A DNA stretch of 58,616 nt, counting the filler, from Diploschistes diacapsis (Eukaryota): NCBI GenBank assembly GCA_023645945.1. It is 5 parts of 5 records of this genome, joined end to end, with 100 filler letters (N's around TTAATTAATTAA, not from the genome) between each part and the next. Parts side by side here need not be neighbours in the genome. Positions count along the whole stretch, not along the records: positions 35,310 to 46,913 come from JALAIB010000815.1; 4 more parts are not named here. One strand, written 5' to 3'. Position 1 is the first letter of the stretch, and each line of letters starts with the position of its first letter. Shown here piece after piece: positions 11,659-43,590 of the stretch. The notes beneath the pieces are model-generated. The model did no database searches. It was not told the DNA's origin and was given only the letters and a program-made list of their open reading frames with translations. A program made the position numbers and the translations under genes.

Positions 11659-11682
11659 CTTTTGATGCGGGGGGGAAGGGTT

Positions 11683-11782
11683 NNNNNNNNNNNNNNNNNN
11701 NNNNNNNNNNNNNNNNNNNNNNNNNNTTAATTAATTAANNNNNNNNNNNNNNNNNNNNNNNNNNNNNNNNNNNNNNNNNNNN
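11683..11782. other. Artificial contig linker
   Basis: N44-TTAATTAATTAA-N44, which places stops in all six frames. Confidence 0.98.
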
Positions 11783-19934: not shown

Positions 19935-19997
19935 GTTAACCCTAACAGGACTTAGGTACTGGCGCCGGCGAAGCGTAACGCATAAGCTATAGGGTCT
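19935..19997. repeat. Dispersed hairpin-rich repeat, copy 2 (end fragment)
   Basis: GTTAACCCTAACAGGACTTAGGTACTGGCGCCGGCGAAGCGTAACGCATAAGCTATAGGGTCT matches the reverse complement of 42152-42214. Confidence 0.7.
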
Positions 19998-20377
19998 CAG
20001 AGTCAAATTAGCCAGGATGCTCTAGAGGAAGTTCCTTGCAGTTCAAAAAAGTGAAGACTTGGTTACCTGACTATTAACTAACTTACTTGACTATATCTTC
20101 GTACCCAAAGGTGTGCCTTCGTAGGGCTGGCTGAGACTGACACAACTGTGCTGCCCCGCCAACCGCGACTTTGCATCTGCTACATTGGTCGGTGTCCCCC
20201 TCTATACTCTACTAGGTCAAGACTGCGATATCGCGCATCATACACGCCAATCTCATGACCTGCGCCAATTTCGGGCTTAGGGTTAGTCTAAGGATAAGCT
20301 TCGCTCGAAGCTATCCTCATCCATCTGGATGTTGAACTTCTGAGGTTGAACTACTCGACGTAGTGGCCCATATTACA

Positions 20378-22515: not shown

Positions 22516-23460
22516 GTAGCGAGTTCGGCATATTCTGAAATAAATCTCCAAGAGAAGACAGGCATAGCATATTCAATTCACCCACTTGTTTTTACTCCTG
22601 ACTTTGACGCGAACCACGATTGCCTGGCTCTAGTTGCCCAGCTATCTGATCCCAGCATGTGGTCTTGGCGCTTCGGGTTCTTGGGTGGACAGACGGCACG
22701 CATAGCAGCGGGATCACGGTGGTGGGTGCATTCTGGGTGGAGCGGGAGGGAGAGGACCCGGTTGTGCTTGAATAAGATCAACGGCCGGGCAGAGTGTCGT
22801 GCAGGGTGCAGGGTGCGATGAGGTGGAGTGTATTCTAGCAAGGAGACACAGTGTTCACATTCCAGGTTCCAGAAACCCCGTGTGCTTCTGCCGTGGCTGT
22901 AGTTCTGCTCTACAATATTCTATCTATTCCTTTTCGTTGTTGCTAAAGATCACGCCTCCTCCTTCCGAGACAATACACAGTAAAATGTTTGCAATAACGT
23001 TTTACCCCTAGAATTTTTGCCCCCGTTTCCTTCATCTTCCTCTCCTTCTCCCACTTACCCAAATCGCATGTGTAACTAGGCCAGCAAGTAAAGCAAAAAA
23101 CAAGCCAAACCAGTACAGATGCGAAAACAGAGATAATCTAGCCAGGGACGAGGAGCAGATCACTCAACCCCAAAAGCGCTCAAGCAAATTCGGGAGATAT
23201 CCTGCATTACTACTATCCCTGCTTCTAAGCAGCGCTCTATCCACCCAAAAGCAGAGAGCCCAATCCCCAGCCCGAGCCAAAGGGGAAATAAGTAAAACTT
23301 ACCCTACGACAACAACGACACCATCACTGAGCTCAAACTATATCGCCCGAAAAGGCATAAACATGAACGTAAACATAAAGCAATAATAACTCTTCGCCCA
23401 TCGCGAAAAATCCCCCTTGGAAGATACCGATTCCGCCGCACCAGCTCCGTGGCCTCCCCC

Positions 23461-23560
23461 NNNNNNNNNNNNNNNNNNNNNNNNNNNNNNNNNNNNNNNN
23501 NNNNTTAATTAATTAANNNNNNNNNNNNNNNNNNNNNNNNNNNNNNNNNNNNNNNNNNNN
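23461..23560. other. Artificial contig linker
   Basis: N44-TTAATTAATTAA-N44. Confidence 0.98.
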
Positions 23561-34532: not shown

Positions 34533-35209
34533 ACAGGACTCTCTCGCGAGGCGCTTTCGGCAGGAGGGCGCTCCAGCACTTGGAGGCGGGGTGTCGACGG
34601 GATAGAAAAAACGCTCGACCGCCGCTCTCGCCAGGTGGCTGCATGGACGTTAGCTTGCAAAAAAACGAATCAGCCAGGACATCAAGAGTTTATTCTTCGA
34701 TCTGCAGACATTGAAGGCTTTCATGTACCCGCGCTCGCTCGAAGCAATTTGGTCCGCCATCGCACCTCCATTTAACAAAGCATCGCAAATACCCCACGCC
34801 TCGTTCTACTCATTGCCTCCCCTCGGTACTTACTTCCCATCATTCCATTCGACCATCCACTCAACCTTGTAGCGCCTTCTCTCGGCCGGCAGTCCATAAC
34901 AGCCCCTAATCCTCTTTCCACCGCAGCAGTAGCAGGCAGCAATTAGCACGACACGCACACAAGGATGCAGTCGAGCCCGGCTCCTAGCCTCTGCAAGAAA
35001 TTCCAAAATCTTCAACACGCTAGACTCATCGGGGCAAAAAGAAAACGGGGTGTTGTTGTCTCAAGGTAGCACAACCGCAAAGTAAAGTAACCAACTGACC
35101 AAACTAACTTAAACCGAGCCCCGAACGACCCGCAAACAAACAAGCTGCAAACACGGGTCCCCCGGAAAAAGAAAAAAAAGGAGAGTCCCGGATTTGCCTA
35201 ATCAAGGGG

Positions 35210-35309
35210 NNNNNNNNNNNNNNNNNNNNNNNNNNNNNNNNNNNNNNNNNNNNTTAATTAATTAANNNNNNNNNNNNNNNNNNNNNNNNNNNNNNNNNNN
35301 NNNNNNNNN
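35210..35309. other. Artificial contig linker
   Basis: N44-TTAATTAATTAA-N44. Confidence 0.98.
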
Positions 35310-36628: not shown

Positions 36629-38648
36629 TCACATGCCTTCAAAGTCACCACCAGCATCGTCATCATCCATCTCCCCTTCGACAATCTCTTTGGCCAGCTC
36701 ACGCTCCCTTTCGCGAGCCTCCTGTGCGTTTTTCAGTTCCAGCCTGTGCTGATTCATTGGGAATCGCATTGCCTACTTCCGTTAGCTTATAACGTAAGCC
36801 AAAGACGCTTTATAGGTTACCTTCACGCTTTCGTCGTGCAAATCGAGACAAGCTCTTATCCGGTCATGGAAAGCCTCACCGGGCTCATGGGTTGCGTAAA
36901 TATCGCCAGTATCTTTGCTCTTCATAAACCCGTGTTCATGATCGAGAGTTGCCTCAATGACCCCGTCCCTAATCGCTTTAGCAACTATGTATTCTGCAGT
37001 TTCCTCGCCAGGCAAGGACAATCTTATGCAAATGTCTCGCAATGAAATCCGCGCATACGAGAGGGACATCATACGGATTCCCGTCTTGATGACGTTTTGG
37101 CGCAGACGAAGAATCAGCGTATATGTCCCGTCCCGACGGAAAGTGTCATTGTGGGCGCGCACAATCTTCTCGAAGCTTTCGAGGTCTCCCACCCGGACAG
37201 CTTGCACAAGCTCGAAGTAGGGCTGCAGAGCGCGCTCGAAGCCCGGTTGTCGGAAAGTTGCACGGTCTGGGATATCCCCCATCAAGAGCTCTACCACGGC
37301 TAACAATTTTGTTGACGCTTGGTAGAATCCGCCAGCACAGTACGACGAAGGTGACTTCCGAGTAGCACCCACCAGGTGATCATGAGCCTCGGAATACGAG
37401 AGTTGGATGGCGCGGATTCGGCCCAGATAATACAAATATCGTGCAATCTGGTTGTTCGATGCGGCTGGTGGGAACTGTGAGTGTGATATTAGAAGATCCG
37501 CTTGAGTAATGTGTGATGTCGAGATGTAATTCCTGAGCAACAGAGTAGTGACTGTGGCTTGGGTATCCTGGTCCTTTCGGAGGACTGCTGTTCGGAGTGC
37601 GGCCAGAAGAGCAGGTCGGATGCTCACAACAGGAGACATAGGAGAAGGAGGTAGAGGGGACCTTTGCTCGAAGAAAAGCGAATAGTAGAAGTAGACTTTT
37701 GCTGCTAGGGCGTCCAAAGTACGACGATTGAGGGTACGTAGTCGATCGACGAGCCCGCTTGAGAACTCTGCACCTCGAGAAAACTCCTTGTTATCGTAAA
37801 GTGCAACTTGAATTAGGATCGATAGATATATATCCACTTCTGGGATTACCTCTTTGAGCGCCGAGCTCTTGCTTGCACTCTTATCTTTGAGCTGCCCATC
37901 GATTTCCATTTCAGTCGTTGTGGCAGATCTGTCAAAGGACGCATCGGGCCTGCCTATAGTGTTGAGTAGGGCCAGCGCGACTGTGTTGTTCGAAGCGTAG
38001 CTATCAGTGATGACTTCTGCAAGAACATCTGGCGTGAGGTGCTTTCGATGGGAAGAAATCGAGCGAAGGACGCGGAGCGAGAAACGAGCGTCAAACTGCG
38101 TCACAGCTTGCTCCAAGAGTTTGAAGTTCGCTTTAATATCTATAGGCACTGTGAGTATAACCTGATAATCGAGAGCCGTCACAAGCCTCACCTGCTACCG
38201 TCTTGACCTTTGGATCAACAGTATCTACCATAGCTTCCTCTTTTATGTCAGCCCCGCCGTCGGCCATTTTGATATCGCCCTCTTTATCTTTCTCGGATTC
38301 ACCCGAAATGATCGAGCCTTTTGGGAGTGGCAGAACTACGGTCATTTCATCTTCGCCATCTTTATGCGGTCGAGCGTCATCCGGCCCATCTTCTGCCATA
38401 GCAAGGTCGTTGGTGCCGTTTGGAGGGTTCCCTACAGATCCCGTGCCATTAATTTTGGGCTTATCGCTAGTTGAGTCCTTGGAGCCTCTTTTCTGATGAG
38501 CTGTCTGTTTGGCCTTTGATGATGTTGTTCGACTTGGGGCTGGTTTGTCCTTTGAAGACGATTTCCCAGACTCTGATCGTGACTTCTCGCCGTTCGTAGA
38601 TGAAGCGGAATCTTTGCTAGATCTTAAGTTCCTGCGTTCGCTGGGCAT
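36629..38648 (-). CDS. rpn3: 26S proteasome lid subunit Rpn3, 3 exons
   Basis: NRRTLDALAAKVYFY, ARYLYYLGRIRAIQL, PCI domain LRLRQNVIKTGIRMMSLSYARISL, last exon AMRFPMNQHRLEL..GDFEGM*. Confidence 0.96.
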
Positions 38649-39009
38649 GGTAGTAGCGGAGAGCTCGGGCTCTTGTATATGTTTAGCTGCGCTAACACCA
38701 CCCTTCTCTTTTGGACCGAAGACGCAACGGATGCTGCTAAAGACAATGTCAAGAGTGAATAAATCCCGGAATGAGAATGACCTTTTCGGGGTTTTGGGTG
38801 GGTGCACGTTGTCGAGGTTATCAATACTCTCGGTAATGCAACGATTGTCTGACACTGAAGTTCCATTTCGTCCAAAGCGCCAAGAAAAAAGCCGCATGTC
38901 ATGGATCAGTCATCAACATTCGTAATTCTAGTCAATCTATTTGCAAAATACAACGCTCGAGAGATTTAATGATATCTAGTATCTAGATAGGTGGAGACAG
39001 TCAACGTGG

Positions 39010-39042
39010 ATTGGACCATAGTATTTATTAACTTATATATAT
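39010..39042 (+). promoter_or_regulatory. TATA-like element and inverted CCAAT upstream of the putative telomerase RNA
   Basis: ATTGG at 39010-39014 and TATATATAT at 39034-39042, about 230 nt before the template. Confidence 0.45.
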
Positions 39043-39059
39043 GTATGTTCCCGACATTG

Positions 39060-40790
39060 AGCGCGTGATATGGCGCGTGAAGCTCACGAGCGTACATTTT
39101 GGTGGTGTGACTTGCTGTTTAGATCGCAGGCTGGTTCATCTTTAACGATCGGTAACAATTGCTTACAACTGGACTTAGGCCAGCAACAATCAATCTTCTA
39201 CCCATTATTGGCCACAGTTCCCAATATGTGCTCATACTGCCTGATCAGTCTCATTTCCTTTTTCTCCAATCTAACCCTGTCCGCTCTGCCGAGCAGTCGC
39301 TATACTACCCGCAGTCTCCATCCTCCCCATGACAGTGACAACTGGTAGCCCGCCCTCACCTGGTACAGCTATTGCTGCGGAGATAACTTACGGCACTGGA
39401 GAGGTCCCTCAGCTTCGACCAATATTTGTGCTCCTCCGATCCTTGCGGCCACAGAGAAATCCGAGGCCTTCATGTCGACCTCGTTGAAACCAGAAGTCTC
39501 GGGAGGAGATGCAGATGTTGTTGCGTGTACGAGCACCAACGTAGGGATCGCCCACGCTTCCACCCGGCATTCGTTATCCCGAGTGAGAATAACGAGATCG
39601 GGGCAGGCCCCAGTGTCTTCTGCTTCCGCTGTAGAGCCTGTCGCTGGTGACATTGGGAAGCTTGGTGTCACGATGGCCTGCAGAAACTCAGAGGCTGTGA
39701 TAAAGAAGCTGAAGAGCTCTGCGCCAACGCGCCGAGTCCCACATACGGACGCTTCCGTCCGTATGGCCCGATAGGATGCCTCAAGTGTGCCCTCTCGAAC
39801 GATTGGAGCGATAGTGTGTCAAGTGCAGGGGATTACTGAGTCGAAGGAAGCACGATGCGGGAGAAGATTTGCCAGTAAAGTACTATGGAGAGATCAGAGT
39901 ACGGTACATAGGATCGTTGTGAATGCAACCGCAGCACGTCAAGGACCTACCCATCTTTAAAACTCCAAACTCGTATGCCCGCTTCTTATAATGACTTGTT
40001 GCACTTCCTTGGAAGCCATCGCATTAGTCAAGCGTACTTGATTCGACTTGCCATCTTCAAAATGGATGCGCCCGAGCTACTCTTCTACATTCGCAGACCG
40101 CTCTGTCCCTGGCTCACTGGGACAATCGGCAAGTCCATGAATAAGATCAAACTGCGAATCACACAGGCAGTCGCTATCAACGCACTGGAGGCGGCAAAAA
40201 AGGGATCGGGCGAGCTAGGCATTGCGCCGGCGAAAGGCCCGACACCCGACAAGTACGCTAAAGCCACCGTTCAAGGCCTACTGACGATGCTCCAGGAGAA
40301 AGATCACGAAGACCAACTGGTTAAGGGGTTTGCCGCAAACGCCAGGGAACTTGCAGCCATAGCCAAGAGGTTGGATCCCGATTGCAAAGAAAAGGAGCTC
40401 GAGGATTGGGTCATGAAGCAGTTCCAAGAACTTCATGAGGCTGACGTCGAGTACACGAAGAGCTTCTTAAAGAGAGTGAAGTAGACCGGCATGAGAAACG
40501 TTCTTTCAGGATGAACCGACGTGGTTTAAATTAACTGTATGCAAAGCAGGCAATTTCGATAATTATCTGTACACCCAAACTATGCCCACCCCCAAACTCG
40601 AGGGGTTGCTTCATGTCGATTTCAAGAGCGGTAGCTACGGATCGCTTCAAATATGGGCACGCTTTTACTGGTGGGAAGCTAGCTGTTACGGAAACAATAT
40701 AATTGTTCTTAAATTGGCTCGTGTGCAACAAGCGTGGTAGTGCAACGAATGTAGCCGTTTTCGCCTACCTAATCATAAATTGCGTTTCGT
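39060..40790 (+). ncRNA. TER: Telomerase RNA, Pezizomycotina type (ends approximate)
   Basis: Template CTAACCCT 39271-39278. Core-enclosing helix ACTGCCTG 39236-39243 / CAGGCAGT 40164-40171. Pseudoknot GACTTGCC 40045-52 / GGCAAGTC 40128-35 crossed by ATTCGCAG 40089-96 / CTGCGAAT 40152-59. P5/P6/P6.1-like junction 40716-40765. Confidence 0.8.
39975..40484 (+). CDS. Orphan ORF (169 aa; 140 aa from ATG 40062) embedded in the putative telomerase RNA
   Basis: Uninterrupted frame. ATG 40062 is in a CAAAATGG context. Charged, helical-looking C-terminal half. No recognised domain. Confidence 0.45.
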   Translation: MPASYNDLLHFLGSHRISQAYLIRLAIFKMDAPELLFYIRRPLCPWLTGTIGKSMNKIKLRITQAVAINALEAAKKGSGELGIAPAKGPTPDKYAKATVQGLLTMLQEKDHEDQLVKGFAANARELAAIAKRLDPDCKEKELEDWVMKQFQELHEADVEYTKSFLKRVK

Positions 40791-40801
40791 TAAAGATAGA
40801 T

Positions 40802-41691
40802 TTACTCTTGCTTTCTATTCTTTTGTCTCTCGAGCTCCAGCCAAACCTTCATCTCCCGGACCTTTAGCACATTCCAGTTGCACTCGTTCTGTGCGCCGTC
40901 CGCCGCGCCCTGATGCATCCTCCTCCTGTGCTCCAGCTTGTCCGGCACCCACCCCTCTCTCTCTTCCCGCTCCTTCTCCACCAGCTCCTTCGCCTCAACC
41001 CACCCCTGCTCAATAAATGCCTGCCCATGCTCCTCCGTCACAGCCGCAGCAGCAAGCCTAGCATATCTGCGCACCAAGTCCCAGCCTTCTGGGGGGCCAT
41101 ACCAAACGTCCGCATAAAATGGATCCTCTTCCTCCCCCCCTTCTTCATACACACCTGTAGAGCGTTTAGCCAATCAGACAATCAGCCAGCCAGTTCGCCT
41201 CCTCAGATCCACTCATCTCTCCAGGGCCTACTCACGATCCCTCTGCTTCAGCCTTTCCTCCTTCACCTCCCCCTCATACCAAGCCCGCAGCGCCCTCCCC
41301 TCAGGCGTGGCGTCGAAAGCACTCGGATCCGCTGCCGGCGCGCCCGGCGGGCCGCGGTACTTCCGCCACATCTCCAATGCAGGCCGCTTGACTATTTTCC
41401 CCCCTGGTGCTCGGGTCCACCACCCACCTACGCCGCTCCAATTGGTCGACGCTTAACCGGCCCATGCGGTGCAACAGCTCTGCGCCCTTTGGATCCCCCA
41501 TGCCAGGGGTCGACCTCATAGGGGTCGTCGCCTTGCTCGTTCTCTGCGTAGGGGTACGGTTCGAAGGCGGCGGGGTCGAGACTGGAGCTGTCATCCGGCG
41601 GGGCTGATGCCGGCTCTTGGTCCGCTCCCGGTCCCGGCGCTGATGCTGGATTGGCGAGGCTTTGGGGTTGCGGTTGTTGAGAGGCTGGCAT
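40802..41691 (-). CDS. Hypothetical protein, 2 exons, with two +1 homopolymer frameshifts
   Basis: Removing one base from each of the C5 (41495-99) and C6 (41399-404) runs gives a continuous MPASQQP..DPWHGDPKGAELL..STRGKIVKRPALEMW..KQRD, intron (GTGAGT..CAG), then RVYEEGG..NRKQE*. Confidence 0.65.
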
Positions 41692-42150
41692 ATCTTTGTT
41701 CGACAGCGACGACCCCAAGGAAGAGGAGAAGGAAAGGGAAAGGGAAGAGAAAGGAAAGAAAGAAGTTCTAGGGGAGATGGTGAGCGTGCGGCGCAGTGAT
41801 CTTTCGAGGCGCTGTGGCGGCAGGCTCCCCACAGGCTGGGTTAAGCGGCCCCTGTCGCAGGCAGCGCTGGAAGCTGCTGCCAAAGCGAAGCTGCGTGGCA
41901 GTGCCGAATAAGACGCAAAGCGCTGAGCGCTAAAGAAAGGGACAGATGTTCTCTTGATATACATATGGCTTTGCTTGCTTTGAGCATGGAGAAGGAGCCA
42001 CAAGCCGCGTTCTAAATGGAGACGCCTAGTGGCCAATTTTAGGATCTTGAACATGTAAGATTTTTGGAGTAAGCGGAGCGGGTCAGAAGGCTGCTTTTAT
42101 TAAGAAGCTGGATGTCAGACGGAGTGTACGACAGCGTTAAAGACAGGACC

Positions 42151-42586
42151 CAGACCCTATAGCTGATGTGCCAGGCTTCGCCGGCACCAGAACCTAAGCC
42201 CCATTCGGGTTAGCGTTCCCGCTAAGTCTTATTCAGGCTAACTCAATCGTTAGGTGCTCGAATAAAGGGTTCAAAAGATGGGTAGCAAAAGGTGTTTATA
42301 GCGTGTAAATAGCTTAAATTAGCGTAAAATGGTCTCCAGCACCTCCTACGCTGCTACCGCCCGCCACACCTATATATTTAAAAGTTTTAACTGTTTAAAT
42401 CGGCTGTTACGGACGCGCGAATAATGATTTTTTGGTAGACAAAGCTATACAAACCCGTAATTGATGAAATACGCCCTTCCGCCTTCAGACTAGAGCCTGA
42501 GAAGCATGTTATCAGACGCTGACCCGAGGGGGCTTAGCCTTCGCAACTAGCGAGGCAAGAACCCCGTCTGACTGCCTAGTAGTCTG
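42151..42586. repeat. Dispersed hairpin-rich repeat, longest copy (possible non-autonomous element)
   Basis: Left end matches 19935-19997 and right half matches 8571-8788. The motif CTAAGCCCCnTCGGGTYAGC occurs inverted near both ends. Confidence 0.7.
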
Positions 42587-42773
42587 TGGAACTGGGTGTA
42601 TCACCGTTAACTGTAGCTCGGCTCACTATTTACAACAATATCGAAGCAAAGGGTGACATTGCAGATCCAAAAAGCTGATACTACTCCGAGAGTATCAAAG
42701 TAAGGCTGTTAAGGTTCTATTTATTTTTTGCGTGCAACAGTGCGCTTTTCGCTGCTCACGCAGTAGCGCCAAG

Positions 42774-43590
42774 ATGAACATGATCGAGAATCACATGGAG
42801 CAGATTGCCCTGTCATCTGCCGCTATAGCTGAATTACCGTGGGTCTACCTATCTCTTACTTTGATAGATAGTATGCTGAGTTGAATGGTCTAGATTTCCA
42901 ACCCCTAAGATCTTTACAAACGCTCTTCTTAATTGCCCCGATATTACAAACCTTATTAGGGACACGGAAGCGCATGAGCGGGCTCTCTTCACCGTTTCCG
43001 AACCCGAAGCAGGATCTTTGCGGCCCTCGTCCCGAAAAAGCCTCTTCTATGATGTGTCCAATCCAAGAAATGCGAGTTATTCTGGACTCAGATCAACGAC
43101 AGCCGCTGGAAGAATCCTTGGAGGTGACCTCCTGGAACGCATTCGCAAAAGTGAGAAGAGCGAAGCCGGAGATCGTAAAGAAGTCGACATCGAAGCTTTA
43201 CTGAAAGGAGCGGAGAAGCTTTGTGGAATCTAGTAAGTCAATTTGTTGATGAAGATCCCTTTTAACATCCTTAGTCCGATACCAGGAGCCCGAGAGAAGA
43301 TTGACTCCCTTAGACATCGGCAAAATCAGCTTGCCACATCCATCAAGCGTTACGAATCTATTGTGGCCAATCAGGCTGCCGAGCTGGACAGAATGCATCA
43401 TCCTAGAGACGGACCATTAAGTGATGAAGAGGGTTATGCAGAGGCTGCTGATGAACCACCCAAAGCCTCGTTCTCTTTGCAAGATCTAAAGCGAGAGGAG
43501 CAAGAGGTTCGAGAGTTGGAGGAAAGGAAGAAGACTCTCGAGGATCGAGTCAGTAGTATGGAGAGAGATCTTGGAGGTCTCCTAAGATAA
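42774..43590 (+). CDS. spc34: DASH/Dam1 complex subunit Spc34, 3 exons
   Basis: HMEQIALSSAAIAELP/FPTPKIFTNALL..DITNLIRDTEAHERALF..LLKGAEKLCGIY/PIPGAREKI, C-terminal coiled coil ending MERDLGGLLR. Confidence 0.9.

Follow-up and report, generated by a model that had tools for sequence, protein, structure and literature searches.

The plus-strand open reading frame (ORF) annotated at positions 40062..40484 of the window, the whole 58,616-nt stretch of Diploschistes diacapsis DNA analysed in this work, is very probably an ordinary nuclear protein-coding gene, made of a single exon and belonging to a very rare fungal family of which two members were found, and not a part of a telomerase RNA (TER). 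Its 5′ end has possibly been rebuilt in recent times. A first-pass annotation had drawn a different picture of the locus, in which a TER would run through the ORF, with its pseudoknot within the reading frame and a P6/6.1 domain downstream, the whole being a candidate dual-function RNA; the template would then fall at 39271. If this were true, protein-coding TERs would be extended to the filamentous ascomycetes and the locus would hold the first bifunctional TER-mRNA in Pezizomycotina. The evidence points instead to an ordinary hypothetical gene that is already annotated, and we regard a TER with that layout as highly improbable. As for the gene itself, only two members of its family could be detected in a set of some 15 billion predicted proteins, and the recent indel that appears to have rebuilt its 5′ end would be a minor example of start codon and N-terminus turnover.

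The open reading frame and its genomic context

From stop to stop, the frame extends over 39912-40484 on the plus strand and contains 190 codons. It comprises 169 codons of that strand when counted from the ATG at 39975, and 140 codons plus a TAG stop when counted from the ATG at 40062, which is found in CAAAATGG and opens the annotated CDS (40062..40484, plus strand). Translation of the DNA gave back the coordinates of both the 169- and the 140-codon forms as the first-pass annotation had reported them, and the distal peptide that it quoted is found in the translated ORF. The compositional bias that it described is equally real, since residues A, E, K and L account for 62 of the 140 residues of the shorter form and GNN codons for 51 of its 140 codons in the ORF frame, the corresponding GNN shares being 0.14 and 0.34 in the two remaining frames. 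Length by itself is a weak proof of coding capacity, as an ORF of at least 190 codons turned up, in any of the frames, in 2.1% of 2000 versions of the region 38950-40800 (1.85 kb) simulated with a Markov model. An identical 140-aa sequence is already present in NCBI nr, so that public annotation already counts the locus as a protein gene, and the 169-aa form corresponds to a Logan gene call.

The window is of fungal origin, and the whole of its DNA is present in a sequencing run labelled lichen metagenome, from which it may derive. It encodes a Zn(2)Cys6/Fungal_trans (Zn_clus) regulator, a P450, an ABC transporter and RPN3, the last of these on the minus strand with TPR_PSMD3_N, PCI and Rpn3_C domains at 36782-38191. 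The ORF is located between RPN3, which lies upstream in divergent orientation, and an unnamed convergent gene of the minus strand, and the locus is an ordinary gap between genes. The convergent neighbour (40802-41700, minus strand) has several exons, with ORFs at 40802-41173, 41228-41452 and 41428-42096; it shows the best codon score in the window and no Pfam family, and only some 320 nt separate its 3′ end from the stop codon of the ORF. On the other side, at 38133-38909 of the minus strand, a long N-terminal extension rich in Ser, Lys and Asp appears to precede the TPR domain of RPN3, with a start codon that was placed by eye near 38648. In the window there are also 352 N, which occur as short runs of about 44 letters (11682-11782, 23460-23560, 35209-35253 and others) and are either masked or withheld stretches or assembly gaps.

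Protein-level conservation and codon usage

At E <= 0.001, a phmmer search of the protein against 1,835,955,588 representative proteins returned the query and one further sequence, P0002, an unnamed and uncharacterised protein of 158 aa from an ENA assembly that matches residues 23-139 of the query (E 6.1e-07, 46 bits). BLASTP aligned residues 22-140 with this homologue at 35/120 identities (29%), 63/120 positives and 3 gaps. Because the protein is rich in A, E, K and L, the match was checked as a possible artefact of composition. The Smith-Waterman score against P0002 was 143, a value that none of 3000 shuffled versions of P0002 reached (mean 28.4, sd 4.8, maximum 55). Reversal of P0002 gave a score of 27, and translation of the same DNA in its five other frames gave scores between 24 and 36. 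Three motifs, N-x-x-K-x-R-I-x-Q, DP(D/N)C and H-x-A-D-V-x-Y, are common to the ORF protein and P0002, and they are atypical of coiled coils. The two proteins resemble each other in their similar length as well, and in being predicted as all-helical, whereas the first 15-21 residues are unrelated and a C-terminal tail of 25 residues in P0002 has no counterpart in the ORF protein.

Codon usage was evaluated with a log-odds score whose training set was six long ORFs from the window, including four confirmed by Pfam. The enclosing ORF ranked 5th among the 129 ORFs of at least 100 codons in the window, and over 40125-40481 the score reached +0.295 per codon in frame versus -0.305 and -0.173 out of frame, which exceeds the values of the training genes themselves (0.117-0.193). 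These data show that the core of the protein (residues 22-140, 40125..40481 of the plus strand), which is delimited by P0002 homology, Smith-Waterman comparison and codon score and is predicted to be all-helical, is under protein-level conservation with gene-like codon usage. The suspicion that the distal part of the ORF looked like real protein was therefore well founded, as residues 22-140 combine a frame-specific homologue in P0002 with the codon usage of a gene. Since the family has only two members, this conservation rests on one pairwise match.

Further homologues were sought through a word-index protein search, a two-sequence profile and the 'shorter' length class, and nothing new was obtained. 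Among metagenome contigs, 243 pattern stretches were matched and none of them was confirmed as a related locus, and the same outcome was observed for 116 pattern stretches in contigs of prokaryote genomes. A scan with a degenerate DNA pattern led to three loci that were all set aside as chance matches: two of them (L001 and L003) have a stop in the motif frame, and in the third (L002) the match is confined to the surroundings of the forced motif (26 aa, E 0.002). The latter is a secreted-looking ORF beside one that, judged by eye, resembles a histidine kinase, in GC-rich DNA.

Predicted structure and possible role of the protein

The first-pass annotation had also called for a structure prediction of the peptide, which came out all-helical, with a confidence too low for a fold search. 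In two AlphaFold models with low mean pLDDT (46.1 and 44.2), only helices were predicted, roughly at residues 16-46, 66-104 and 110-139, together with a Gly/Pro-rich linker. Pfam returned nothing for the query protein at E <= 10, and for P0002 and the core it gave only sub-threshold noise (VMAP-M1, E 0.059; ABC_trans_N, E 0.2). Besides RNR beta (E 0.57), a profile search of the PDB retrieved only 8qkd_A, a designed coiled coil (E 2.2e-4); neither was kept as a relative, both being read as a reflection of helical composition. In the ESM Atlas, no usable hit was obtained with P0001, and hits with P0002 reached 0.85 at the most. Altogether, the search for a clue to function in Pfam, the PDB and the ESM Atlas gave no family, no solved structure and no cluster.

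With a low pLDDT and no relative in Pfam, the PDB or the Atlas, the mode of action of the protein can only be inferred. The product of the gene is most likely small and soluble, with some 140 aa and a fold predicted to be entirely α-helical, in which two conserved helical blocks would be joined by the Gly/Pro-rich linker. Both the DP(D/N)C turn, which is conserved, and the H-x-ADV-x-Y motif are located in the last helices, and they are the putative functional surface. Very tentatively, such an architecture might correspond to a helical bundle or adaptor that works through protein-protein contacts rather than to an enzyme.

The 5′ end of the gene in close relatives

Two relatives, X2 (organism A) and X3 (a rock metagenome), each of which holds about a quarter of the sampled words, provided contigs that were aligned to positions 38100-41700. 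Agreement with the window starts at 39008 in X2 and at 39746 in X3, and in both it lasts up to 40123, with 31 substitutions and 7 gap letters between X2 and the window over the 1116 nt that end there. Past this position, X2 and X3 share the same other 30 letters, and their loose ends continue for 161 and 97 letters, respectively. In another X3 contig the match starts at 40124 and is preceded by 255 loose letters. Both of the 30-letter loose-end strings are absent from the rest of the 58.6-kb window when up to 3 mismatches are allowed. X2 and X3 thus have, at a breakpoint at 40123..40124, other sequence of at least 255 letters that is missing from the window. The first residue with similarity to P0002 is number 22, whose codon starts at base 40125, so these extra letters fall exactly at the border of the conserved core, at least 255 of them being present in the relatives or, equivalently, missing here. 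A simple intron in the extra letters of the relatives was considered and discarded, as no GT was seen by eye at the left junction within the 30 letters compared.

The stretch to the left of the breakpoint behaves in a very different manner from the core. Codons 1-21 (40062-40124) have scores of 0.092, 0.104 and 0.087 in the three frames, with no preference for any of them. Both X2 and X3 have a CC inserted behind 39936 and one base missing at 40038, which puts the 169-codon form out of frame in the two relatives, and this 1-nt deletion together with the split at 40123/40124 implies that the first 21 codons and both ATGs are not conserved. We consequently describe 39975..40124 of the plus strand, which contains both ATGs and the first 21 codons and has no similarity to P0002, as a non-conserved 5′ extension that was probably upstream DNA in former times. 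Indels of 1-2 nt are also found in the relatives throughout 38966-39726, as opposed to the RPN3 stretch at 38100-38755, where X2 has 9 substitutions and no gap, so that 39000-40123 behaves as non-coding upstream DNA. Within this upstream DNA, an ORF of 149 codons on the minus strand (39369-39818) ranks 15th among the 129 ORFs by codon score; in the relatives it is affected by an A inserted behind 39370 (X2 and X3) and by a base missing at 39726 (X2), and it is probably not coding. To the right of the breakpoint, X3 has 3 substitutions and no gap over 40371-40538, the sole X3 piece listed for the ORF, while the X2 contigs leave 40157-40398 uncovered and none of them joins across.

A weak hint that the relatives may keep the ancestral N-terminus comes from X3, in which the 28 loose letters closest before 40124 were found, by hand reading, to be open in the frame of the ORF. 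Together with base 40124, they give the ten residues that precede residue 22, three of which are equal to those of P0002 at residues 6-15. A plausible course of events would be that a deletion removed 255 bp or more, as compared with the two close relatives, and fused the conserved core to upstream non-coding DNA, which by chance would have been open in the same frame and have offered an ATG in a good context. Neither the first 21 codons nor the present start codon would then be ancestral, and the start would probably have been recruited after the deletion. Of the fallback explanations offered by the first-pass annotation, a 'captured gene fragment' comes the closest, inasmuch as a conserved coding core is joined to a non-conserved 5′ end, as the relatives suggest.

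The same breakpoint admits a less favourable reading, in which a real gene lost its own start and promoter at 40123/40124 and would now be a decaying relic, its long ORF persisting only because the event is recent and its product no longer being expressed as a functional protein. We consider this outcome unlikely, although it has a real share of the probability. It would agree with the letters absent from the window that separate the left (40123) and right (40124) parts in X2 and X3, with the lack of frame-specific usage and of P0002 similarity in codons 1-21, and with the small indels of the upstream stretch in the relatives. However, the 119 conserved codons are intact, free of stops and frameshifts, and 63 nt upstream of them there is an in-frame ATG whose context, CAAAATGG, is favourable. 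Moreover, the indel may be a deletion here or an insertion in the relatives, and the comparison of the loose ends spans only 30 letters in each case. A working gene, with a 5′ end that was possibly rebuilt, is thus the reading that we prefer over a gene in decay.

Telomerase RNA and other readings of the locus

In the dual-function proposal the template would be CTAACCCT, a word resembling a telomere template at 39271..39278 of the plus strand, on the strand of the ORF and about 790 nt upstream of the ATG at 40062. It is the only one near the ORF and was judged to be a chance occurrence: 8-nt words of the CCCTAA repeat occur ten times in the window, at 5 places, versus 10.7 expected under uniform composition. 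In Aspergillus, the template consists of the telomere repeat with direct repeats of 3-6 nt at its ends that serve for alignment (PMC3603654), and the alignment repeat of CTAACCCT, of 2 nt, is below that range. Two telomere-like words of 10 nt are also present in the window, one of them, TAACCCTAAC at 19937 of the plus strand, within the first copy of a dispersed inverted repeat of 61 nt (19937-19997 and 42152-42212, 82% identical), and the other at 20277-20286 on the minus strand. Both are better template matches than the word at 39271, yet they lie in repeat or intergenic DNA.

According to the first-pass annotation, the ORF would span the TER pseudoknot and core helix and end before P6/6.1, an arrangement that none of the tests confirmed, be it Rfam, motif blocks, folding or processing signals. 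At the gathering score, Rfam 15 gave 0 matches in the whole window, a result to be read bearing in mind that a filamentous-fungal TER model in Rfam is not certain, and at E <= 10 it gave only two weak and unrelated matches in 38500-43000. Motif blocks were taken from a TER alignment of ten Aspergillus species (supplement of PMC3603654), and may miss a divergent TER. With up to 3 mismatches, the TWJ 20-mer and the post-template 24-mer had 0 matches in the window. The CS4 15-mer had 3 matches in the window, all of them outside the locus, and the CS3 13-mer had 4, one of which falls at the ORF (40380-40392) on the opposite strand. As for the P6.1 14-mer, its 21 matches are close to the 20.3 expected, and none of them is on the plus strand of 38900-41500.

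In the TWJ, a P6 stem is accompanied by a P6.1 stem of 4 bp with a 5-nt NUNGN loop, and the available text of PMC3592445 describes this element as highly conserved across the subphylum. The sole hairpin of this kind on the plus strand of 38900-41500 is found at 39095, which is upstream of the presumed template. For the pseudoknot, CS3 was taken as stretches of successive uracils and CS4 as an A stretch, which form U-A.U triples, and 39900-40500 contains two U3 runs and one A6 run. Signals at the TER 3′ end comprise a Sm-like U-tract, an AUA(A/C)GU 5′ splice site and a GCU(A/G)ACU branch point (PMC3603654). Neither AUA(A/C)GU nor a run of at least six U was found on the plus strand of 38900-41500, where GCTGAC is present only at 40440, inside the ORF.

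Folding of the ORF stretch gave a z of -0.85, with 25/100 shuffles as good. In the 3′ flank that had been assigned to the P6/6.1 domain (40485..40801, plus strand), the z was +1.44, 93/100 shuffles were at least as stable and no P6.1 hairpin was found. This region is also prone to indels, as 43 letters of the window (40538-40580) are replaced by 9 in X2.

Relatives with about 97% identity should show a TER core in colinear order, and the split of the proposed one at 40123/40124 counts against a TER. What is left of the notion of one RNA acting as TER and mRNA is therefore an 8-nt word at chance frequency and a core that is interrupted in two relatives. An 8-nt telomere-like word plus an A-run is insufficient for a TER call.

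A modified version of the proposal would keep one transcript of this lichen-associated fungus as TER and mRNA, with the template at 39271 and a conserved small protein encoded inside a core too divergent for motifs derived from Aspergillus. Some features would fit the proposal in either form, namely the presence of CTAACCCT on the same strand, an intergenic gap of about 1.9 kb that falls within the 1584-2425 nt given for Pezizomycotina TERs in PMC3592445 and PMC3603654, and the existence elsewhere of coding TER precursors such as UmTER and hTERP. Nevertheless, the core is interrupted in the two relatives, words like CTAACCCT occur at the chance rate and this one has a repeat of 2 nt only, and the poverty in U3 runs of 39900-40500 goes together with the negative outcome of Rfam, Aspergillus blocks, splice site, U-run and folding. 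Moreover, the TER of Neurospora crassa lacks an apparent ORF. The chances of this version are very slim.

Lastly, the ORF might be non-coding DNA that is open in this frame by coincidence, as its occasional appearance in simulated regions (2.1% with at least 190 codons) and its lack of a Pfam family might suggest. This reading has a practically negligible probability, because the homologue is significant library-wide and frame-specific and the codon usage is frame-specific as well, and the phmmer match and the Smith-Waterman frame comparison refute it for practical purposes. An ordinary protein-coding gene is, after weighing these readings, the one that we retain for the locus.

Comparison with known telomerase RNAs

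Precursors of TER with coding capacity are real, as the first-pass annotation had noted for Ustilago maydis and human. In U. maydis, the emi1 mRNA has a 3′ UTR out of which UmTER is cut (PMC9564094), and the human TER encodes hTERP (PMC6158713). The only likeness between these systems and the D. diacapsis locus is the idea of a single transcript with both an ORF and a TER. The TER of U. maydis is placed downstream of the ORF, in the 3′ UTR and with no overlap between them, and both the TER and the protein have been demonstrated by experiment (PMC9564094). Since the TER is established in U. maydis and human and not detectable here, the comparison does not apply to this locus.

As for the Pezizomycotina TERs, the locus is similar to them in having a single template-like word of 8 nt and in the TER-like size of its intergenic gap. 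It differs from them in having no post-template block, CS3, CS4 or TWJ/P6.1 on the plus strand, as judged with Aspergillus motifs, and no Sm-like U-tract, AUA(A/C)GU or structural signal. In addition, the D. diacapsis locus contains a conserved protein frame and those TERs contain none.
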